DNA of 64,000 nt from Pseudomonas phage Pa_WF01. The DNA lies in the sequence record OQ848593.1; one strand, given 5' to 3'. Every line of letters starts with the position of its first letter. Within the stretch, counting starts at the first letter, position 1. A program made the position numbers and the translations under genes. Below, piece by piece: positions 1 through 64,000 of this stretch. Below the pieces are notes generated by a model. The model was not told where the DNA came from and made no database searches. It saw nothing but the letters and a program-made list of their open reading frames with translations.

Positions 1-1286
1 ACAGCCGTCTGCACCTTGTTCTTGGTGCTCGCCGGACCCTTGTGCACCACGATGCTGGAGCCACGGTGACCGGTGATCTCCACATGGTAGGCCGGTTCGC
101 TGTGCTGACCCGACAGAGCAGCTCCCAGCATGCGGGAAGCTTCCTTGATGTCGGTCATGCTGCGGTTGGCCTTCAGTGCACGCATGGCTTCGTCCGGCAG
201 TTCGAAGAGGATGTGGTAGGCGCGGACACGCATCTTGTTCGCGTCGTAGGACGGGACGGCGATCACGTCTTCCGGGGCCACCTTGGCCAGCACACACACG
301 TTGCCGCTGAAGCTGCCCAGGTACTGACGGCGAGCCACATGCAAGCCATTAGAGCACTCGTTGCGGCGATCCGGGTCCACGAGGGACTCGTTCATGCACA
401 CCAGAGTACTGACGCCTTGCGGCACCTTCTGCGAGTGGATGTCACGGTAGGAGAACTCCTTGTGGTCATCCGGGCCGCCTTTCAACAGCAGCTTGTAGAT
501 CACGATGCAACCATCATCGGCGATGGGGAGATCCCCACGTTCGATGAAGCGCATCAGATCTTGCACGCTGTGGCTGCGCTTGGCAGATACGGCACCAGCC
601 CGGCGAAGGAAGTTCTCGATGCCGACAGTGCTGCCCTTGGCTTTCGACTGAACAGCTGCGGTAAGCTGGGTCTTGAGCTTCTGAGCATCCGGCACGATGG
701 TTCCCTGGTCGGTCACGGCGATGATGGTGTCACCTTCGCCCACGTCATCATCCGGGTCTTCCGACTCTACGCCGTCTTCGCTGAGGTTCTCCAGGTCTGC
801 GGAACTGAACTGCGGGGCAGATGCCGGTACAGCGTGGGCCAGGATGTCATCCACAGCCTTGGCCAGTGCGGGATCCTTGATGGTGACCTTTTCGACCACC
901 TCTTCCACTACACCCTGCCCAGCATCCGCGTCCGGTGCGCAGTCGCCAGGAACCGCGCCAGCGGTGACGGGAGCGACGGGAGCAGCTGGCTCGGATGCGG
1001 AAGCTGCCGAGAAGAACTCTGCGACCTTCTTCTTCGCCACGCGGAAGAACCGCATGATGCCGCCGGACTTCTTCTCGGCGGCTTCGTAGACGTTGTTGAT
1101 GACCAGCAGGTCTTCGGAGTAGTCCACTTCACCACCCTGGCTCAGGATGGGGACGTACTTCTCGACGAAGATGGCGACACGGGGATCGCCTTGGGGGATA
1201 CGGATCTGCTCGGCAGACCCTTTCACGTACAACGTCAGGTACCTTTCGTCAAGGACAGCACCTACGACAGTTACTTTGTTGCTCAT
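1..1286 (-). CDS. rIIB-like protein (putative); the gene's 3-prime end lies beyond the window start
   Basis: Minus-strand reading frame open to the window edge. ATG at 1284-1286 is preceded by AAGGAGAAACCA. It lies immediately downstream of the rIIA-like gene, matching the T4/N4 rIIA-rIIB order. The call rests on synteny only; no diagnostic motif was seen. Confidence 0.4.
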   Translation of the reverse strand, partial: MSNKVTVVGAVLDERYLTLYVKGSAEQIRIPQGDPRVAIFVEKYVPILSQGGEVDYSEDLLVINNVYEAAEKKSGGIMRFFRVAKKKVAEFFSAASASEPAAPVAPVTAGAVPGDCAPDADAGQGVVEEVVEKVTIKDPALAKAVDDILAHAVPASAPQFSSADLENLSEDGVESEDPDDDVGEGDTIIAVTDQGTIVPDAQKLKTQLTAAVQSKAKGSTVGIENFLRRAGAVSAKRSHSVQDLMRFIERGDLPIADDGCIVIYKLLLKGGPDDHKEFSYRDIHSQKVPQGVSTLVCMNESLVDPDRRNECSNGLHVARRQYLGSFSGNVCVLAKVAPEDVIAVPSYDANKMRVRAYHILFELPDEAMRALKANRSMTDIKEASRMLGAALSGQHSEPAYHVEITGHRGSSIVVHKGPASTKNKVQTA

Positions 1287-4162: not shown

Positions 4163-4404
4163 GGAGCTACTCCTTTGATGTGGGACATCAGTTTCTTCTT
4201 CGGCATCATCCGGTTCTCTGCCCGGAAGATGTCGTACTCTTTTTCGGACACCTGCTCATACCCTTCGGGCACAGGCAGTTGTCCCATGGTCCAGGTGTGG
4301 GTCATGCGAGTCACACGGTTGACGAAGAAATACCGTCCGTTGACAGGCGCATGACCCAACTTTCCTGGAGTCCAATCAGCTTTCAGTTTGGCTTTCTTCG
4401 CCAT
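4006..4404 (-). CDS. hypothetical protein whose 3-prime 156 nt overlap the HNH gene in another frame
   Basis: ATG at 4404 is preceded by AAGGAGTAATC. The first ~80 aa look protein-like. The C-terminal third is low-complexity read-through across the HNH gene. Confidence 0.35.
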   Translation of the reverse strand: MAKKAKLKADWTPGKLGHAPVNGRYFFVNRVTRMTHTWTMGQLPVPEGYEQVSEKEYDIFRAENRMMPKKKLMSHIKGVAPCSKDAGKKSGRESKPAAKSKTRASSSTENPAPATSGKARIRVRAGAVVTGE

Positions 4405-18996: not shown

Positions 18997-19302
18997 GTGA
19001 CCTCCTAGTTGTTCTGGAGTGCATATGTTACCACGCCCTACTGACACTGCTGTGAATTTCTCCACAGGCAAGACTATATCTTCACCCCAGAAGGGTGCTT
19101 CCCATTTCCACCCACTTGGGTGTACGGCCTAAGCCTAGTCGTTGAACCTTCTCCCATACGGAGCTTGGCTGCTGATTGCCCAATCCACACACTTTTCAAA
19201 CCTTCGCTTTGCCTTTCGGCTCGCAGTGGTAGCGTGGCTCTAAGGGGTTCCCAGCAATTAAGGAAGTGATCGACATGGATTGCTCCATGAAGGGGCTAGA
19301 AA

Positions 19303-19545
19303 TCAACCCGAGCAGCAGGCATCCAGCCCTACGAGGTGGCCAACAGGCTCACCACGCTGAGCAGCACGGATGGCCATGACAGCCTTGAGGTACTGCGGTC
19401 GAGTCTTCTCGTTGCACTCCAGATTCTCCAGGTTGTCGAAGTTGTCGTAGCACCATTGGATGCGCTGTTCGAAGAGCCATTTGTCATGGCCCATTTGGTT
19501 TGCAGCGTCGATCAGAAGGTATTCGAAAGCGGTGTAAGGGGTCAT
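19303..19545 (-). CDS. hypothetical protein
   Basis: 80-aa ORF on the low-GC island. Confidence 0.4.
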   Translation of the reverse strand: MTPYTAFEYLLIDAANQMGHDKWLFEQRIQWCYDNFDNLENLECNEKTRPQYLKAVMAIRAAQRGEPVGHLVGLDACCSG

Positions 19546-23603: not shown

Positions 23604-23694
23604 GATTCAGGTTCCTTGTAGGGAGAGGTAGTAGATTCAGATCAGAAGTGGTTCAGCCAGAAGGCCATTACACAGGCGTAGCCTGCTCTTGCTC

Positions 23695-23880: not shown

Positions 23881-23952
23881 GATGAAATTCCTAAGTAAAC
23901 AGTGAGTTGAGATGGTTTGGATTACCACCCCATGGCCGTAGGCCATGAGTAC

Positions 23953-26540: not shown

Positions 26541-26600
26541 ATGAGGATAGACAATGTAGTTGAATGCACTGCACCACCCCACTATCTCCCCTATCCTCAT
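26541..26600. repeat. 10-bp inverted repeat ATGAGGATAG...CTATCCTCAT separated by 40 nt
   Basis: Direct reading, inside a non-coding region. Confidence 0.5.
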
Positions 26601-26688
26601 ACACACGAGAGACGAGTTACTGTCAGGTGAAGAGTAATCTCACAGAGAGTATCCCTTCCTTCCTACAACCTACTGTCCCTGAGAGAGA

Positions 26689-26727
26689 TGTGTGCTTTGT
26701 GTGTGCTCTTGATCTTATGTGTGCTCT
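26689..26727. repeat. three direct copies of TGTGTGCT(T/C)T spaced 11 and 18 nt apart
   Basis: Direct reading, inside the 400-nt non-coding region. Confidence 0.55.
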
Positions 26728-26765
26728 GAAAAGGTAAGCCCCCACTCCGTGTTAGGGAGTGAGGG
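26727..26765 (-). terminator. imperfect 10-bp stem hairpin with CTTACCTTTTC tail after gene 26779..27033
   Basis: Inverted repeat CCCCCACTCC...GGAGTGAGGG with one mismatch. Confidence 0.4.
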
Positions 26766-26778
26766 ACTTGGGGTAGGG

Positions 26779-27033
26779 TTAAGCCTTGGCCTTGGTACGT
26801 TCCTTGCGGACAGACTCGACAGCTTCGGTGAGACCCTTCTCCTGAAGTTCCTGAGCGTTCTCGATGTTGAGCAGTGCGATGGCTTGTTCGCGTTGCAGAC
26901 GAGCCTTGTTGTTGAAGTGAGCAGACTCTTCTTCAGCCCACTCGGTTACGTTCTCGGCAGCCTTGGTCAGGTTAGTGACAGCACGGAACATGGATTCCAG
27001 CATAGCGAAGAATTGGTTGAGAGCTTTGAACAT
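26779..27033 (-). CDS. hypothetical protein flanked by two large non-coding regions
   Basis: 84 aa. Stop is followed on the - strand by an imperfect 10-bp-stem hairpin. Confidence 0.45.
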   Translation of the reverse strand: MFKALNQFFAMLESMFRAVTNLTKAAENVTEWAEEESAHFNNKARLQREQAIALLNIENAQELQEKGLTEAVESVRKERTKAKA

Positions 27034-27364
27034 GGTAGTACTCCAGAGTAGTGAGATGTTGATGTGAGGACAGGATTAATCCACAGCACAGCCGAAGGCT
27101 TCTCTTGTTCTAGAAGTACAGACAGTTGATTGGGTAGAAGGAGAGTTAAACAAGGTGGGGTAGGTAGCGCGGGAATTCCAAAACTCAAGAGGTACCGGGG
27201 GGGATAACCGGATTTGGAGAGCCGCAGACTGAAGTACTGAATCCGTACTTAGCTAAACGAAAATCCCTCAGATCCGCGATAGCTGAATCCAGACTTCTAT
27301 GATGAAAATCCCTACAACCCAAATCACTTCCATCTCCCCAAACCAATCCCTTTCCCCCTAGCTC

Positions 27365-27449
27365 CCATAACCCATAGCTGAGGTTAAGTCGCCAAGCACC
27401 GAGCGCAGCGAGGTGGGCAGGATGACTGGTCCGAAGCTATGGGTTATGG
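27365..27449. promoter_or_regulatory. element A: 15-bp inverted repeat CCATAACCCATAGCT/AGCTATGGGTTATGG enclosing a 55-nt loop that carries GAGCGCAGCGAGG (27401..27413)
   Basis: Direct reading. The same 13-mer recurs at B and C in the same orientation, also inside inverted repeats. Confidence 0.55.
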
Positions 27450-27496
27450 ATACCTGTGGATATCTATAGCCAAGTTATCCACAGGATATACACACT

Positions 27497-28200: not shown

Positions 28201-28229
28201 CGGCCCGAGTCAACCCCGAGCGGAGCGAG
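28201..28229. promoter_or_regulatory. element B: GTCAACCCC-GAGCGGAGCGA-GGGGTTGAC (9-bp stem) carrying GAGCGGAGCGAGG, followed by CGAGG-GTAATT-CCTCG
   Basis: Lies ~55-80 nt upstream of the start of 27497..28147. Direct repeat AAGCCTCGCGC x2 sits just downstream (lower coordinates, 28148-28187). Confidence 0.55.
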
Positions 28230-28290
28230 GGGTTGACGAGGGTAATTCCTCGTGGTACCCTTGGTATTACTCACCCACGGGGGATTACCT

Positions 28291-28311
28291 ATATATTATA
28301 TAGGGGGGAGA
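28291..28311 (-). promoter_or_regulatory. AT-rich TATATATTATATA-GGGGGG motif (reads CCCCCCTATATAATATATA on the - strand)
   Basis: Contains TATAAT-like hexamers. A similar motif is at 63748..63762, also upstream of - strand genes. Confidence 0.4.
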
Positions 28312-28313
28312 AG

Positions 28314-28337
28314 GAGGCTTACGGGCCTCCTTTTTTG
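28314..28337 (+). terminator. GGAGGC-TTACGG-GCCTCC hairpin plus T6; may act in both directions because an A-run precedes it on the other strand
   Basis: Stem-loop with T-run. Lies after - strand gene 28349..28657 and before the TATATATTATATA element. Confidence 0.5.
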
Positions 28338-28348
28338 TGCCTGGAATA

Positions 28349-33500: not shown

Positions 33501-35693
<2,193 letters not shown>

Positions 35694-47500: not shown

Positions 47501-50500
47501 TAGGTACTCGACAGGCCACCGCAGCTTCCCAGCTGGGTGCCAAGATCGTTGATGTCCTTGGTTTGGAAGTCCTGCCGAATGCTCCTGTGAACGAGCGTGC
47601 ACGTCTGGAAGCTTCCCTGGGTGAGCATGCCTTGGCTCTTCTGGTGAAGATGGGCGTGGCGAAGATCACCACTGTCAGCGACGCCAAGCTGAAGTCCCTG
47701 ATGGACTCCAATGAACCGGCCAACCCCCGCGTCAAGCACTACTTCCTGACCCCGGTCAGTGAGCGTGTAGACGGCAAGCTGGTTCCGGGTGCAGTTGCTC
47801 GCCAGATCCGTGAAGCCAATACCGGTAGCCAGTCCATCCTGGCCAAGCTGTTCGGTTCGACTGAAGGTCAGACTGAGCCGAGCTTCACTCCTGTGCCCTT
47901 CACCCAGAAGAACGCCAAGCGTACTCAGCAGCCTGTTCCCAAGGAACTGGCCAAGATCCTGGACGACGCAGGTAAGCGTCCCATGCGTCTTCGCCAGGAC
48001 ATGTACCAAGTGTGGGGCAACCTGTCCGAGAACGCATTGGCCACCATCGCTGGTGCTGTAGACATCGAAGGCGGGTTCGTACACAAGGCCAACCGTGCTG
48101 GCACTCAAGCCAAGAACGATGGTCTGGTACGTCAGATCGACAACTTCAACGAGTTCTTCGGCCGCATCCAAGAGGTTTCTGACCTTGGTTTGGAGCAGCC
48201 GCTGTACTTCGACCGGAGCGTGTGGAAGCCTCAGCGTGTTGGTTTGACTGCCAACATGATCAACCCGCAGACCAGCAAAGTGCATCGTCACATGCTGGCA
48301 ATGGAAGGCTGGGAGAACACCATCAATCTGTCCAACAAGGCAGAGATGGATAGCTTCAAGCTTCGCGTACTGGAGTCCTTCGGTGTGAAGACCGAGGGCA
48401 ACAACACTTCGAAAGTGCTGGCCAAGTACGACAGCAAGGTGAACACCCCGGCGATCCAGGCTGGTGTATCTGCCCTGGCTGAGATCCTCCGTGGTGAGGC
48501 CCAAGACACTGTGGCCAACGAGTCCGCAATCCTGGCAGCCGTAGCCGAAGCTGGTGAGAAGTTCTTCAGCTTGGATGGCTTGGTAGCACTGGCTCAAGAG
48601 AAGATCGCCCGTGATAACGGTGCTGAGTCCTTCACTACCCAGCTGCTCGGCGAAGTGGACGGTGTGACCAACGGTCCTATGCTGTCCCTGCTGATGTCTG
48701 GTGCCAAGGGTTTTGACACTCTGAACCAGGGTGGTTTCTTCAGCCTGGAAGATCCGTACACCCAGTTCAACGACTACAAGGCACAGGGCAACCTGGACCT
48801 GTACGAGGGCACCATCAAGGCTGTGCTGGACCGTCTGGGCAATGAACCGCTGCTGTCCTCTGTGGAAGTCATCACTGGTGTGCTGACCAACGAGGAAGGC
48901 GGTGTATCGTCCAAGGGCCGTAACGTCATCAAGAAGCCCCTGACCGCAATGATGTTTGGTTCCAACACCAAGACTGCTGTCAGCGGTATGGCTGATGCCT
49001 TCATCGAAACCATCTACTCCAAGATGGAAGACGCTGCCAATGCTGGTGACCAAGCTGCCCTGTCCAAGGTGATCTCTGCTGTAAACAGCCTGATCGCCTC
49101 GAAGAACAGAGACAAGCGTCAGCTGTGGCCTACCGACATGGGCTTCGAGCAAGCACTGAATACCGTCTACTCTCCGGTCCAGCAGACTGCCATCAAGGCA
49201 GCCTTCTACGACCTGCTGGGTAGCAAGGTAGAGAGTGCCCTGAACGACACCTACGAGGTATTCATCGCTCGCCGGGACACCATCAACAAGACTGCGAACA
49301 TGGCTTTCCAGATGTACGAAGCTGTCTTCCAGGCTCGTCGTGATGAGCTATTGGCTTCGGCCAACCTGCCTCGTGGCAATGATGGCCAGCCTTTCGCTGA
49401 CCTCACTCGTGCCCAGATCGACCAGATCCGTAACGAGTTGAAGGACATGGAGCCGATCCTGCACACCGCTTTCTCGAAAGCCAGCGGTGACTTGGATTCT
49501 GGGATGCTGATGGCGAAGACCCGCCGTGAACTGAACGACTCTCCCCTGTACCGCTCGGAAGTCCACTTCGCTGAACCTCTGGAGTTCACCGATGAGGAAG
49601 GCCGCAAGCAGTCTGTGAAGAGCTTCCGTGCCAGTGGCATGACCACCGTCAACGAAGGTCCGGGTGTAGCTCCGTTCATCACTGCTACTCACGCAGGTGA
49701 CTCGTTCATCTCCCACAATGCACTGATGGGCGAAGATGTCCTGAACATCCACGATGCTCACGGTGTGGGCGTACTGGGTATGGATGCTGCTGGTCAGCGT
49801 CTGAACGAACAGACCTTCAAGCTGATGCTGAATTACTCGGCAGCCAGTGAGATGGTTTCGACCTTCGAGCGTACCCTCGCTGGCTTCAGCAAGTGGGTAC
49901 AGGATCCGCAGGTTGCACGTCAGTTCGGCAAGTACCTGGAAAGCCAGAAGACTACCGTCTCCACTCAGCTGGCCAGCATCCGTCACGTCGCTGAACAGGC
50001 TGACACCGACAAGCTGAACATGCTGGCCAACATGCGTGCAGTGGGTCAGTACGCCACTGATGGCGGTAGTTACATCGTCACCGATGCTGACCGTGCTGCT
50101 GCTGTGAAGGCCCGTGAAGAGATCGGTAGCACCTTCAACCCTGAAGCGGAAACGATGGCTGATGCTATCGACGCTCAGCTGAAGGCTACTCCGCGTGAAG
50201 CCAAGCCCGCTGCTCGTAAGCCTCTGCGCAATGACTCGGTACAGTCCCTGGCTCCGGCTACTACGCTGAACACCATGGACCGCACCAAGGCTGAAGGTCA
50301 GCTGCAACAGGACATTCAGCAGGTAGCCCAGGTGATGAAGAAGTCCAACCTGAGCTTGGAGTCTGCCAAGGAAGTCCTGCCGGAAGATCGTGCTGCTGAA
50401 GTGGTCCAGGCCGTTCAACAGAACAGCCGTGCCAAGACCTCGGTATGGGGTGAACTGGGTCAGCCGGTAATTCCGTCTGACCAAGCACTGGTGGATCTAC

Positions 50501-53500
50501 TTACCGAAACCAATGACCTGACCACTCGTGGTCTGGCTGAGGCTCTGATAGCCCGCACCAACGATCCTTTCCGTAAGCAGGTGCTTCGTGCTGCTCTACG
50601 GTCCATCCGTGAAGATGTACCGGTCAAGCTGGTCACCTCTACCACTGGCCCTGACGGTGCAGTTGGTGAGGGTGTGAGCAAGGCTCGTGGTTGGTACGCA
50701 ACCCGTGGCAACTTCGAGGCTCTCTACGTGAAGAGTCCTGAGTTCGTAGAGTCTGGCATCACTGAAGAGATGCTGACCCATGAACTGCTGCACGTTAGCC
50801 TGGGTCGTACCATCCAGCGCGAACTGGACAAGAAACAATCCAATGCCAACTACGACTCTGCTACTTGGCGTATGGTCAATGACCTGGAGATGATCCGTGC
50901 TCGTGCCAGCGACATGCTGAGCAAGAACGGTGGCTTGTCTTCCAAATACGCCAACGCTGTCTCGAACGTGCATGAGCTTGTCAGCTGGGGCATGACCAAC
51001 CAAGGCTTCCAGGAAGAAGTCCTGAAGAAGTTGGAGATGCCTGCTGGTAAGCGTGACGCTGGTTTCACTGACGGGCTGCTGCGGTTCATTCGTAACCTGA
51101 CTGCCCTGCTGTTCCGTGACACCAAGCCGTCCGATACCAATGCCATGGCTTTGGTGATCAGCAATACCTCTGGCTTGTTCGCCGAAGCTGCTGCACAGAT
51201 GGCCAAGCGTAGCGACCTGACCTTGAAGTACGAGGACGCTGTAGATCAGGTCAACGCGATGAGCAGTGAACAGATCTTCAATGCCCTGGAGAGCGAGAAG
51301 ACCCCGCTTACCGAGGCTCATAGCAACAAGCTGAAGTCTGTCCTGAACAGCATCGTCACCGAACTTTACGGTCCCATGGGTGCATTCCGCAACGAGGTTG
51401 CTCGTGGTCAAGCACTGACCACCACTGATGCTGTCCTGAAGGCTCTGGACACTGGCCGCCTGCCCTTCGCCTCTCAGGCATTGGCTTCGGCGTTCATTAT
51501 CAGCCCGCAGGAAGCCTACGTGCTGGAACAGGTTGAGGCTACTGTGGCCACCACCCTGAACAGCAACGATGGAATCTTCATCCGCAGTAGCCTGGAGAAC
51601 CTCTGGCGTGAAGCCAAGGATCGCCTGACTGCTAAGGACTTCTTCGCTGGTGATTGGGACCAAGCCACCCAAGCAGAGAAGGATGTGGCACAGGAGAAGT
51701 ACAACTTCCTGTTCCGTCCTGAGCGTGTTGGTTCCCGTAGTGACTACCTGAGCCGCTTTGCTGCCCTGGGTGTAGCGAGCCAAGAAGTAGCGAACCTGCT
51801 TCAGTTCACTACCCGTAGCAGCGAGAAGTCCTTGGCTGGTATGCCACTGGCTACTCGTCTGGTTGAGATGTTCCGCCGTCTGCTTACCCGCCTGGGTCAG
51901 CTGCACGACAAGACTCGTCCTGGTGAGGTGGCTGAGAGCCGACTGTTCACCCTGGTGGATCGTCTGGTGGATATCGAAGCCAAGCGTCGTGGCCGTCTGG
52001 CTGACCAGAAAGTGGGTGCCCTGGACCAGGTGGAAACTGCCCTGGCGAACACTGGTGAAGCCATCAAGGACAACCTGAACCGGATCGCTGAATCTACCTT
52101 CTTCACTCAGTCGAGCAGCCCCTTTGTTCGGGTAGCTGGCAAGACCATAAGCACCATCACCAATGAGCGTGTTGGCTTGGTCCTGGACGGTATCACTCGC
52201 ATCCGTGACAACGCTTTCAAGAGCCAACACGGCATGGCTATGCAGGTAGTGAACGAGATGCGTGGTGCACACGAGGGTAATCTCGCTGCACACACTCTGT
52301 TCAAGCAAGCCAAGTCCAACGAGATGGCTCGTAAACAGCACATCGAGTACACCGCTGCGATGATCAATGAAGGCTTCAAGGACAATGGCCAGTACCTGAG
52401 CACTGAAGACCGTGCTGCTCTGACCAAAGGTTTCCTGCGTACCAACATGGGTAACCTTCGTGAAGCCCTGGGTATGGATCGGTTGAAGGAAGTCCTTCTG
52501 GACAATGGCGAATTCGCCAATCTCCGCAAAGACCTCGAAGACCAACTGCTGGCATTGCCGAACGGTCAATATTTCCTGGGTGCTGTGAAGGATCTGGCTT
52601 ACCACCGTGTGATTGGTGGCAACGTAAGCCCGAACCTGATGCTGAACAGTGCGAACATCGCAGACATGCTCGGTACCAAGCGTGTGCTCCAGTCCTCCAA
52701 GGCAGATCGTGCGAAAGCCATCGAACTGCTGGACCAGCTGCAAGCTGTCTATGGGTGGGAGTACTCTGGTTCCCAGGTGAAGAGCCGCGCCCGTGAAGTG
52801 CTGAAGACCGAATCCAACCGTACCGATGGCAACGGTGTGGATCTGATCCTGGCCATGCACCATGGCTTGGGTAAGCGCTCCAAGGATGCCCTGTTCCAAG
52901 GCACCGAACGTCTGTACACCGATGGTTATGTACCGGACATCTTCGACTCCAAGATCGAAGTGCTGGCCGTAGACCGCAGTGACCTGCCCTACTTCCAGAA
53001 GCGTGGCTACGCTGTTGCTGGTGACGTGCAGGTAGACCAACGTGCTGGTCTGGAATCCGACAAGGTTCTGGTGACCCGTCGTGGTAGTGGTCAGGTTGGC
53101 TTGCTGACTGGTGCGATGAGCTACACCGGTGTGCATGCTCGTGGTACCAAGGTGGACCGTCAGGCTACCAACATGCTGTCGTCCGCTCCGGGAACTGCGA
53201 AGAACGCCATCACTACCATCAAGCGCAACATTGCACAGGATGTGAGTGACATGTTCCTGCGTGATCGTTCCTACGATCCTCGCCAGCAGAAGCCTGGCCG
53301 AGTATCTCCTGTGGTGAACCCGAATGGAGCCATCGTGGACTACCGCTATACCATGACTGAACACAACCGTGACAGTCTGCTGGATCGTGATAACTCCATG
53401 GAACAGGTGCTTGGTACTCTTGCAGGTCAGATCGTGGACAAGGTTGACTCCGCAATCCAGAACGCTGACGTTGTTCGTGCTATGTACGACCAGTTCCGCG

Positions 53501-55484: not shown

Positions 55485-55614
55485 AGTGAAGTTCCTTCTG
55501 GTTGGGTGTAAGGGATGGAGTGCTCTGGTCTGGACCCCATTGCGGGGTGGTGGGTGTACCCGTTGCAACGGGCCAGAGCACTCCCTTATGCCTACTGGTT
55601 CAATAGACATAAGA

Positions 55615-58931: not shown

Positions 58932-59666
58932 TCAGTTGTAGTACCAGTCCAGATGGTCAAGAACCTTCTGGATGTCGTTGTCGATGTAGGTCTGCTCGTG
59001 CGTCCACATACCCATGGGACCACGAATGCGCTCACCGACAGTTTCCTTGGTGATCTGCGTCTGGAAGACGTGCTTGTAGCCAAGCATTTCCTCCTGCGGC
59101 GTGATCTCCAAGAGCTTGTTGTTCTCCTTGAACGGCTCCAGCTTCCCGAGTTCTACCTTCTTGGTGGAGATCACCGTGGAGAAGTAGGACTCAATGCCGT
59201 TGTTCTTCAAGGCGCCCTTGACCGGAACGCACACGTCCATGGCCATGGTTGCCTTGTTGTACTCTTCCTTGGTGTGAGCCAGGAAGATCACCTTGCAGGG
59301 ACTGCTGGCAACCTTCTGTTGCATCAGATCCTTGAAGAACTGCTGGAAATCCATCCACGCAGCTTGCCCGTTGGCAGCCCGGTAGATGTACTGGGACTCG
59401 TACATGTCCAGCAGGTAGGTGAGGGTGTCGATGATGATGGTGTGGGCTTCTACCTTTCCCTCCACCACTGCATCGAAGACAGTGGGGATCTGGTAGGGAT
59501 CGGTCACCGTCCGCTCGATGAAGCGAGACTTGAACGGCAGCCGCTTACCGGCTTCGCAGTTCAGGTAGATGACCTTCTCCGGCTCCCGGAGATTCCGCAG
59601 ACAAGCAGACTTGCCAGTAGCGGACAGACCGGAAACCAAGACCAGATGGTCGTTCACTTGCGTCAT
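58932..59666 (-). CDS. AAA_24/Sak4-like P-loop ATPase
   Basis: Walker A GLSATGKS and Walker B IIIDTL. Start at MTQVND, preceded by GGAGTCAATC; the ORF-track start lies 12 nt upstream. Confidence 0.55.
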   Translation of the reverse strand: MTQVNDHLVLVSGLSATGKSACLRNLREPEKVIYLNCEAGKRLPFKSRFIERTVTDPYQIPTVFDAVVEGKVEAHTIIIDTLTYLLDMYESQYIYRAANGQAAWMDFQQFFKDLMQQKVASSPCKVIFLAHTKEEYNKATMAMDVCVPVKGALKNNGIESYFSTVISTKKVELGKLEPFKENNKLLEITPQEEMLGYKHVFQTQITKETVGERIRGPMGMWTHEQTYIDNDIQKVLDHLDWYYN

Positions 59667-63709: not shown

Positions 63710-63747
63710 GAAAACCTCCTGGTTAAAAAATGACCACGAAAGTGTCT

Positions 63748-63762
63748 TATATATAATAGGGG
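63748..63762 (-). promoter_or_regulatory. TATATATAATA-GGGG motif ~40 nt upstream of the gene starting at 63709
   Basis: Related to the 28291 motif, with the same orientation relative to downstream genes. Confidence 0.4.
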
Positions 63763-63858
63763 ACTCTCACCCCTCTTCTTTCGAAGGGGTTCGCCCCTGG
63801 AAGGGGCCGTCCCAGGGCGACCACTAGCGCTCACCCTCCCCCTTCTCCATCCAGGGAA

Positions 63859-63931
63859 GGGGTCAGGTGAAGTGGTCGCCCGAGGAGCGAGCGCAGCGAG
63901 GCCCGCAAGGGATGACCCGTAACCTGACCCC
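63859..63931. promoter_or_regulatory. element C: 10-bp inverted repeat GGGGTCAGGT/ACCTGACCCC enclosing a 53-nt loop with GAGCGCAGCGAGG (63889..63901)
   Basis: Same architecture and orientation as element A. Lies upstream of the - strand unit starting at 63709. Confidence 0.55.
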
Positions 63932-63942
63932 TGACCGGGGGA

Positions 63943-63958
63943 AATTGAATATTCAATT
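63943..63958. repeat. perfect 16-bp AT-rich palindrome AATTGAATATTCAATT
   Basis: Direct reading; operator-like dyad. Confidence 0.6.
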
Positions 63959-64000
63959 ATTCCTTCCGCCTATCCACGCATCCACTCCCGTCTCGCTCTG

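Follow-up and report, generated by a model that had tools for sequence, protein, structure and literature searches.

What do the inverted repeats do that crowd the end of a 64,000-nt stretch of DNA from Pseudomonas phage Pa_WF01 (sequence record OQ848593.1; the whole stretch is referred to as the window)? A preliminary description had listed a short motif, several GC hairpins, a larger inverted repeat (Element C) and a perfect 16-bp palindrome between 63710 and 64000, and had taken this density of dyad symmetry to be typical of a replication origin or of a promoter/operator region heading the replication-gene operon. All of these features were recovered at their places, and Element C belongs to a conserved, strand-specific family of DNA hairpins with four copies in this phage. 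We tentatively, and with somewhat more reservation than conviction, read it as an initiation signal of the hairpin type known from bacteriophage N4, forming together with its mirror copy (Element D) a divergent pair and possibly a replication origin.

Element C (Table 1) is composed of three helices. The outer helix P1 consists of perfect 11-bp arms (AGGGGTCAGGT at 63858–63868 and ACCTGACCCCT at 63922–63932). In P2, GTCG-CCC (63875–81) pairs with GGG-A-TGAC (63909–16), including one G·T pair and leaving a bulged A at 63912. The tip P3, CGAGC-GCA-GCGAG (63888–63900), combines two G-C pairs and a tandem G·A with a GNA triloop (N, any base) centred at 63894, and the motif GAGCGCAGCGAGG spans 63889–63901. 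The folding strand is the plus strand, i.e., the template for leftward transcription. Compared with shuffled sequences, single-strand folds of Elements C, A and D yielded z-scores of -2.8, -3.8 and -3.3, respectively. The window contains more long inverted repeats than expected (12 vs 2.5 ± 1.7 for arms of 10 bp or longer and spacers of 30–75 nt). Taken singly, the smaller constituents do not stand out: the 13-mer motif, with up to 2 mismatches allowed, is not above chance in the window (3 found vs 2.3 expected), and perfect 16-bp palindromes are not unusual per 64 kb (2 found vs 0.77 expected). Further clamped hairpins (1006–1079, 4298–4358, 49970–50029, 52168–52231 and 59101–59174; 10–11-bp perfect arms, 39–54-nt interiors) are located within genes, that of the virion RNA polymerase among them, and add to the enrichment of inverted repeats.

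Element C had rightly been counted as the third copy of the motif in the window (27401, exact; 28218, one mismatch; 63889, exact), and a fourth member of the family, Element D, begins at 63968. The common plan is an imperfect hairpin of 75–90 nt, the sequence of P1 differing in every copy. The gap from Element A to the terminal repeat is ~92 nt in phage LIT1 and ~140 nt in window coordinates; the copy of A in phage FBPa1 displays compensatory P1 changes (A-T to C-G swap), symmetric 2-nt deletions and a GTA loop. Element B is identical in four other Litunaviruses and is located ~60 nt upstream of a minus-strand gene (28147 to 27500) for a protein of 216 aa; this candidate Drc gene lies between A and B, and its product had no PDB or Pfam match. 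Element D could be completed from phage MAG4 (locus L001, 9969–10053), where the minus strand reads GCCTATCCACGCA...GATCGAGCGCAGCGAGC...TGCGTGGATAGGC. Its P1 is formed by GCCTATCCACGCA/TGCGTGGATAGGC; the tip reads CGAGC-GCA-GCGAG, again on the minus strand, and faces the tail-fibre gene at ~64102. C and D thereby mirror each other around the perfect 16-bp AT-rich palindrome AATTGAATATTCAATT (63943–63958), of which a 14-bp core, ATTGAATATTCAAT, is kept in LIT1, MAG4 and locus L011. In LIT1, LUZ7, KPP21, Littlefix, phCDa and five metagenomic relatives, a D-type copy is found at the corresponding position, and its distance to the tail-fibre start codon is conserved (45–52 nt). C-type copies were found in Litunavirus and three metagenomic relatives; the element at the C position of LUZ7 is homologous but has a different tip (CGGC-GCCA-GCCG).

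Covariation was assessed in a hand-built structural alignment of 15 elements, N-padded so that MAFFT left the registers intact; it replaced MAFFT's own alignment of the elements, which was structurally wrong. Paired cells amounted to 88 % as compared to 57 % in shuffles (0 of 500 as high) and 27–37 % in slid registers, and both sides had changed in 18 of the 27 pairs, with P2 paired to 100 % and P1 to 95 %; these pair counts lean toward the model because the alignment was fitted to it by hand. The raw sequences themselves nonetheless show the P1 swap and deletions of the FBPa1 copy of A; in them, too, P2 switches between CCC/GGG and CGC/GCG, and one relative has C-G and T-A instead of the tandem G·A. 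Conservation of the family, with compensatory changes, extends over several genera.

Short-motif scans of the sequence collection yielded abundant chance hits in GC-rich contigs, and post-filtered hits alone were used. A 68-kb IMG/VR contig of 31 % GC (L040) harbours the complete architecture at 1200–1280 (minus strand), with a 17-bp P1, the helix GTACG-CC/GG-A-TGTAC with a bulged A, and the tip TGAGC-GAA-GCGAA. The repeat CATCCTGAGGAGCGAGCGAAGCGAGCGTCTCGAAGGATG of IMG/VR loci L070 and L142 has ~20 nt and the helix plan in common with the core of Element C. A related motif, AGTGAGCGNAGCGAAC, is present in many low-GC viral contigs (IMG/VR L224, L174, L194, L193 and L242); among the matches listed, 48 of 121 are in loci of <42 % GC. 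It often occurs as inverted pairs around 100–250-bp AT-rich spacers; in the T7-like contig L224 the pair separates the thymidylate synthase/terminase genes from the early genes plus RNA polymerase. The AGTGAGCGNAGCGAAC occurrences may represent a much wider family.

The motif strand is identified as the folding strand by the G·T pair in P2 (conserved in 9 of 15 elements), by A-to-G changes that preserve pairing on this strand only, and by the tandem G·A, which corresponds to C·T on the complement. The middle base of the loop is free across the copies (C, T, A or G). According to a review, GCGNAGC forms an extraordinarily stable DNA mini-hairpin for any N and is present in N4 promoters and phage priming sites. 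In Rfam, at gathering thresholds as well as at E values up to 10, no credible family was found for the elements, and the best match over the region (mir-885, 25 bits vs a threshold of 66) was taken as chance; a search of the window for tRNA and tmRNA (transfer-messenger RNA) genes found none. Since GCGNAGC is stable with any N, no Rfam family applies and no RNA ends occur in the LUZ7 copies, we read Element C as a DNA-level signal, neither a gene nor an RNA gene. The converse is improbable in our estimation, namely that motif-sense RNA, made by antisense read-through into the intergenic region from either side, folds into the three-tier hairpin and functions in insulation, in processing or as a small RNA. 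RNA, too, typically has G·U pairs, bulged A residues, tandem G·A and triloops, antisense transcription is genome-wide in LUZ7 and LIT1, and in L040 the flanking genes have the motif on their sense strand. This proposal nevertheless faces the lack of an Rfam match even at E values up to 10, and the absence of 3' or 5' ends at the LUZ7 elements and of a U-tract (no T-run was found 3' of Element C on either strand), as well as the fact that GCGNAGC with any N marks the stability of DNA rather than of RNA; moreover, C and D would be in opposite senses within any single transcript.

The position of the elements was resolved by means of related genomes. The window shares ~97 % identity with Pseudomonas phages VL1, MAG4 and PA26 (Litunavirus, N4-like Schitoviridae) and is the customary map's reverse complement, circularly permuted. 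Early and middle genes occupy the minus strand from ~29.5 kb down to 1; between 29.5 and 54.7 kb the plus strand carries the late genes, among them that of the 3398-aa virion RNA polymerase. Leftward from 63709 to ~55 kb, the minus strand encodes the replication module, which comprises SSB, annealing protein, primase, exonuclease and two small open reading frames (ORFs), and a plus-strand tail-fibre gene begins ~100 nt beyond 64000 in annotated close relatives. Thus extended through the relatives, the region is not simply the end of an upstream gene; the stretch from 63710 to ~64102 is genuinely intergenic and separates divergent genes, the replication operon leading leftward and the tail-fibre genes rightward. 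The order of tail-fibre gene, a gap of 390–490 bp and replication operon is common to LIT1, LUZ7, Littlefix and phCDa. The region had been described as entirely non-coding, in agreement with the ORF list, which has only short mechanical ORFs for 63710–64000, and with the lack of annotation in MAG4, Pae575P-3, LIT1 and LUZ7.

For LUZ7, a member of the same phage subfamily, transcript 5' and 3' ends have been mapped genome-wide by ONT-cappable-seq (Putzeys et al. 2022); the tables of transcription start sites (TSS) and transcription termination sites (TTS) were taken from the bioRxiv supplement. Three of the mapped sites fall in the homologous gap: PM2, T37 and PL8. PM2 is the middle promoter of the first replication-operon gene; its TSS (35273+) was confirmed by primer extension, and 14–15 nt upstream of it is the hairpin GCCCCC-TCC-GGGGGC. 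With this hairpin the small GCCCCT-GGA-AGGGGC of the window aligns column for column. Among relatives its stem covaries (GCCCCC/GGGGGC, GCCCCT/AGGGGC and, in more distant ones, GCTACC/GGTAGC and GCTCCC/GGGAGC), and the start predicted for it is at ~63784–63787, leftward. It possesses the attributes of LUZ7-type middle promoters (a GC-rich hairpin with 6 or more stem pairs and a loop of 3–4 nt, ~15 nt upstream of a G start and on the strand of the early/middle genes), which the larger and differently structured Element C does not. On this alignment the small hairpin qualifies as the replication-operon middle promoter of PM2 type. The preliminary description was accordingly right in placing a promoter region at the head of the replication operon, with PM2, T37 and PL8 mapped there in LUZ7, but this promoter is the small hairpin; Element C as the replication-operon promoter was rejected. 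The GGGG-TTCG-CCCC hairpin (63786–63797) noted earlier overlaps it.

T37 is a weak terminator (TTS 35304+), with a termination efficiency of 0.02 after 10 min that had reached 0.35 by 20 min, consisting of the hairpin GGGGGAGGGTGGACCCC plus TTTATATATAAG. Its counterpart in the window comprises the hairpin AGGGG-TGAGAGT-CCCCT (63758–63774) followed by AUUAUAUAUAAG, and the block is kept in LIT1, LUZ7, Littlefix and phCDa; a terminator scan marks the MAG4 copy as terminator-like. The attenuator thus agrees with the GC-rich hairpin plus U-run of rho-independent terminators, to which Element C, lacking the T-run, does not conform. The motif TATATATAATAGGGG (63748–63762) lies inside the A/U-rich tail of this attenuator. 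Its TATATA had been considered as an AT-rich promoter of the N4 RNAPII type, which was rejected given the homology of the tail to T37. PL8, the late sigma70-like promoter of the tail-fibre gene (position 34978, TATACT -10 element), has its homolog just beyond the window end, and Element D of LUZ7 spans -33 to -120 relative to it.

Element C itself resembles the N4 promoters in several respects. N4 virion RNA polymerase demands hairpins with 5' G and 3' A in the loop, a C·G closing pair, G at -8 and a purine at -11; the GC-GNA-GC tip of Element C provides the loop G and A, the closing pair and G at -8. The N4 promoters P1, P2 and P3 (GCGAAGC, GCGGAGC and GCGGAGC), as checked on N4, are all located on the template strand of rightward early genes and likewise possess a G-N-A loop, a C·G closing pair and the GC-GNA-GC heptamer, their template strand folding more stably than the non-template strand. 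The same orientation rule is observed here, the motif strand being the template of the faced genes in all four copies (A, B and C leftward, D rightward) as well as in the Pseudomonas relatives. The mapped LUZ7 early and middle promoters (PE and PM) are GC-rich hairpins with template loops GAA, GTA or GGA, PE3 and PE5 having GC-GTA-GC tips, and their G starts are 13–15 nt from the loop centre. At this same spacing template C residues occur in A, C, D and the D element of LUZ7; in Element C the CCC in question coincides with the first base of H1, a second hairpin with perfect 11-bp arms (GGGCGACCACT/AGTGGTCGCCC; DNA fold -24.4 kcal/mol), one arm of which starts exactly 13 nt from the centre of the tip. 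H1 was found only in Litunavirus and overlaps the 5' half of Element C by 24 nt, rendering the two structures mutually exclusive.

From the observed structure, strand asymmetry, conservation, orientation and likeness to mapped promoters we infer a mechanism that would link extrusion to the binding of a polymerase, to a start site and to a possible part in replication. Negative supercoiling between the divergent operons would extrude the palindrome, whereupon the motif strand would remain folded by virtue of its G·T and G·A pairs and GNA loop, the complement folding less well. A phage-encoded hairpin-dependent polymerase, i.e., the virion RNA polymerase or RNAPII with Drc, may then initiate at CCC 63879–63881, 13–15 nt from the loop centre, and proceed leftward to the replication operon; the mirror copy D would act likewise in the rightward direction. 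The two extra helices could serve as a clamp, allowing extrusion and persistence on replicating DNA rather than during injection alone. In RNA started at 63879–63881 (minus sense), H1 would form a 5'-terminal stem-loop capping the RNA. Element C would thus be additional to the main, PM2-type promoter, its product being probably short or rare. If that product is a primer, as it may be, a bidirectional origin would be constituted by C, D and the AT-rich palindrome; the origin-like placement of the pair beside replication genes and the reported need of N4 virion RNA polymerase for genome replication speak for the initiation reading, too.

Several observations weigh against an N4-type initiation signal. 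LUZ7 is the only relative with a genome-wide 5'-end map, in which TSSs were called down to 15 reads per million, and this map contains no TSS or TTS inside D (35011–35098) or the element at the C position (35119–35203). The predicted start is inside helix P2, which would have to melt, whereas N4 P1–P3 have 5–7 plain Watson-Crick pairs, a single-stranded A4 spacer and the +1 C at 11 nt, in contrast to a tandem-G·A tip clamped in two more helices and 75–90 nt overall. Most copies have a pyrimidine, C or T, at the loop centre (Elements A, C and D have C, and B alone has G), and N4 virion RNA polymerase requires a purine at -11; the subfamily may be exempt from this requirement, since mapped LUZ7 and predicted LIT1 promoters tolerate T. 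No such large elements were found in the first 45 kb of N4. The elements are mid-genome and at the right end, outside the first-injected left end where virion RNA polymerase promoters are expected; A and B are just upstream of the right terminal repeat, and the predicted early promoters are elsewhere. As early promoters predicted by Ceyssens et al., A and B were rejected, these predictions mapping to 27079–27103, 23925–23947 and 23665–23689. Furthermore, the distant full-architecture copy of L040 is sense-oriented relative to the genes that flank it, and D faces late genes, whose transcription in LUZ7 is carried out by host RNA polymerase from the sigma70-like promoter just downstream. Because the simple stem with single-stranded start and the purine at -11 are lacking and no mapped start is available, we refrain from assigning the elements to the N4 promoter family proper, even though an N4/LUZ7 hairpin promoter or a single-strand initiation (ssi) signal is what Element C most resembles in its working. 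The absent LUZ7 starts, the start within P2, the absence from N4, the genomic position and the L040 copy agree better with short primers or with hairpins read by a primase, and either would make C, the palindrome and D an origin.

That the C-palindrome-D ensemble is the replication origin of the Pseudomonas N4-like phages, with divergent primers made by a hairpin-dependent phage RNA polymerase that the supercoil-extruded, clamped hairpins would recruit on opposite strands, is in our view rather unlikely as a specific claim. The divergent pair around the AT-rich palindrome, beside the primase, exonuclease and SSB genes, does have origin-like geometry, and the arrangement that characterizes ssi-type origins, namely strand-specific hairpins on opposite strands around an unwinding element, is present as C (plus), D (minus) and the palindrome, the latter being a candidate operator or DNA-unwinding spot. 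N4 virion RNA polymerase is reported to be necessary for genome replication, and an origin of this kind would explain that need; the N4 literature searched describes no replication origin. If true, the tandem-G·A/GNA hairpin would moreover be a widespread initiation signal in unrelated phages. GC skew had been suggested as a check: cumulative skew does peak here in MAG4, but the peak is uninformative with respect to an origin because it coincides with the coding-strand switch and has a sign opposite to that of a classical origin. DnaA boxes are not enriched in the window (10 found vs 9.9 expected). A 10-bp inverted repeat (CCTGTGGATA...TATCCACAGG, 27453–27485) adjoining Element A has DnaA-box-like arms, with a perfect TTATCCACA at 27475–27483.

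The primary origin of T7 is comparable in that promoter-like sites for a T7-family RNA polymerase adjoin an AT-rich stretch upstream of replication genes, but T7 has tandem, double-stranded promoters that form no hairpins and are not arranged as a mirror pair.

An origin could also operate without RNA polymerase, C and D being ssi hairpins read by the phage primase-helicase or a replisome loader once the AT-rich palindrome has unwound, as in RSF1010 oriV or the G4 complementary-strand origin; we would put little trust in this version, too. RSF1010 ssiA and ssiB and the origins of G4, St-1 and alpha3 are strand-specific DNA hairpins like C and D, with GNA or GNNA mini-hairpins (of GNA type at the G4, St-1 and alpha3 priming sites and RSF1010 ssiA), and RSF1010 likewise combines two signals on opposite strands in one origin. 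Mirror copies on opposite strands with an AT-rich core near the primase, exonuclease, annealing-protein and SSB genes, the lack of TSSs in the LUZ7 equivalents (as expected of primers), the retention of the D type in every relative examined, and comparable inverted motif pairs around AT-rich spacers in unrelated phage contigs are all compatible with it. The likeness in sequence is, on the other hand, confined to the mini-hairpin; the RSF1010 and G4 signals are read by the primases RepB' and DnaG, and RSF1010 has iterons and a larger AT-rich region, compared to a core of merely ~16–24 bp and no iterons seen here. The skew inflection, accounted for by the coding-strand switch and of the wrong sign, lends no help. 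A and B at the right genome end and the short form of B would be left unexplained, the tip at the LUZ7 C position is different, and no recognition mode could be deduced from the primase, for which the Pfam search returned only a sub-threshold PriCT_1 match.

Given that the elements are located between two promoters mapped in LUZ7 and that D abuts the -35 position of PL8, a purely architectural or regulatory role was also considered: supercoil-absorbing cruciforms or phage-protein sites would tune or insulate the flanking PM2- and PL8-type promoters, with no initiation taking place. SSB or Drc nucleation, or a repressor on the TTGAAT/ATTCAA palindrome, would be candidates for binding. The half-sites of this palindrome reappear across the PM2 start of LUZ7 (CTTGAAT-GTGA-ATTCAAG), hairpin promoters require negative supercoiling, and the LUZ7 elements contain neither TSS nor TTS. 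Such a role would, however, leave the polymerase-recognition tip and the preference for one strand unexplained; the two adjacent small proteins revealed no DNA-binding domain, and other validated late promoters function without such elements. We consider it fairly improbable. Still less credit, indeed very little, is given to a selfish or recombinogenic repeat of the repetitive extragenic palindrome (REP) or miniature inverted-repeat transposable element (MITE) type, which would mark module boundaries and have no dedicated initiation role. Four copies per genome with unrelated outer stems, a variable gene flanked by A and B, similar cores in repeats of other contigs, and the C/D inverted pair around an AT-rich spacer, resembling MITE-like pairs in L194, L224 and L174, would suit such a repeat. 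But neither target-site duplications nor a transposase were found, and the fixed position and distance of the D type relative to the tail-fibre gene across genera, together with the compensatory changes, indicate vertical inheritance under selection.

Next to their role as models of hairpin-promoter transcription, N4-like phages are candidates for Pseudomonas phage therapy, and their middle promoters were found only recently. In the literature on LIT1 and LUZ7 genomics, Drc, LUZ7 transcript mapping and N4 RNA polymerases, the clamped hairpins are not described. New is therefore a conserved, covarying, strand-specific hairpin class with a polymerase-recognition tip that is located outside every mapped promoter, and which may represent a promoter class missed by 5'-end maps, a signal belonging to an origin, or a structure that regulates the two divergent operons. 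Interest in the elements would rise if they proved to be a replication origin or promoters invisible to current maps. The homology-based functional map of the Litunavirus control region (promoter, attenuator and late promoter) should be useful for phage engineering.

Table 1 Features of the divergent intergenic region and further members of the hairpin family (window coordinates)
Feature	Position	Strand	Remarks
Element A, 15-bp P1, same architecture as C	27365..27449	+	right genome end, upstream of terminal repeat
Element B, short form (P3 only), GTCAACCCC-GA-GC-GGA-GC-GA-GGGGTTGAC	28209..28239	+	P3 extended to 13 tiers
First replication-operon gene, 142 aa	63281..63709	-	ORF list; homolog of LIT1 gp57 / LUZ7 gp60
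Weak terminator/attenuator in 5' leader (by homology)	63746..63774	-	homolog of LUZ7 T37
Small N4-type hairpin promoter (by alignment), GCCCCT-GGA-AGGGGC on template strand	63793..63807	+	homolog of LUZ7 PM2
Hairpin H1, perfect 11-bp arms	63815..63881	.	DNA fold -24.4 kcal/mol
Element C	63858..63932	+	P1/P2/P3 three-tier hairpin
Element D, left part, mirror-image copy	63968..64000	-	full element to ~64052, past window end

The first gene of the replication operon is preceded by the Shine-Dalgarno sequence AGGAGG (63715–63720). Its product matches phrog_3360 (2.5e-49) and had no match in Pfam; in relatives the gene is annotated, with the exonuclease and primase genes coming after it. A link of the locus to an anti-defence hotspot was rejected, as this hotspot is situated between the primase and virion RNA polymerase genes and is unrelated.

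Besides the PM2-type promoter, N4-type template-strand hairpins with GGA loops are overrepresented in the window (8 found vs 2.5 expected). Two identical copies of AGCGTAC-GGA-GTACGCT (14273 and 17046) and one GGGTGCC-GGA-GGCACCC (59700), all on the plus strand as template, belong to this type, the last resembling PM3/T41 of LUZ7; these three are likely to be further early or middle promoters. Upstream of Element B (28289–28340), an AT-rich block (CCTATATATTATATAGGGGGG) and the GC hairpin GGAGGC...GCCTCC followed by T6 repeat the hairpin-plus-TATATA layout of the attenuator region. A hairpin with 12-bp arms (GGAGTGCTCTGG...CCAGAGCACTCC, 55517–55584) resembles the sequence at TTS T48 of LUZ7, which is located in the orf69-70 intergenic region where small RNAs have been reported. 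By homology to the 647-bp repeat of LIT1, the terminal repeat extends from ~26578 to 27224, and an inverted repeat with 10-bp arms (26541–26600) is found at its inner boundary. In the middle-gene region, a group I catalytic intron was detected on the minus strand at 19050–19315 (Rfam RF00028, 82.5 bits, full-length model), constituting the only Rfam match that reached threshold.

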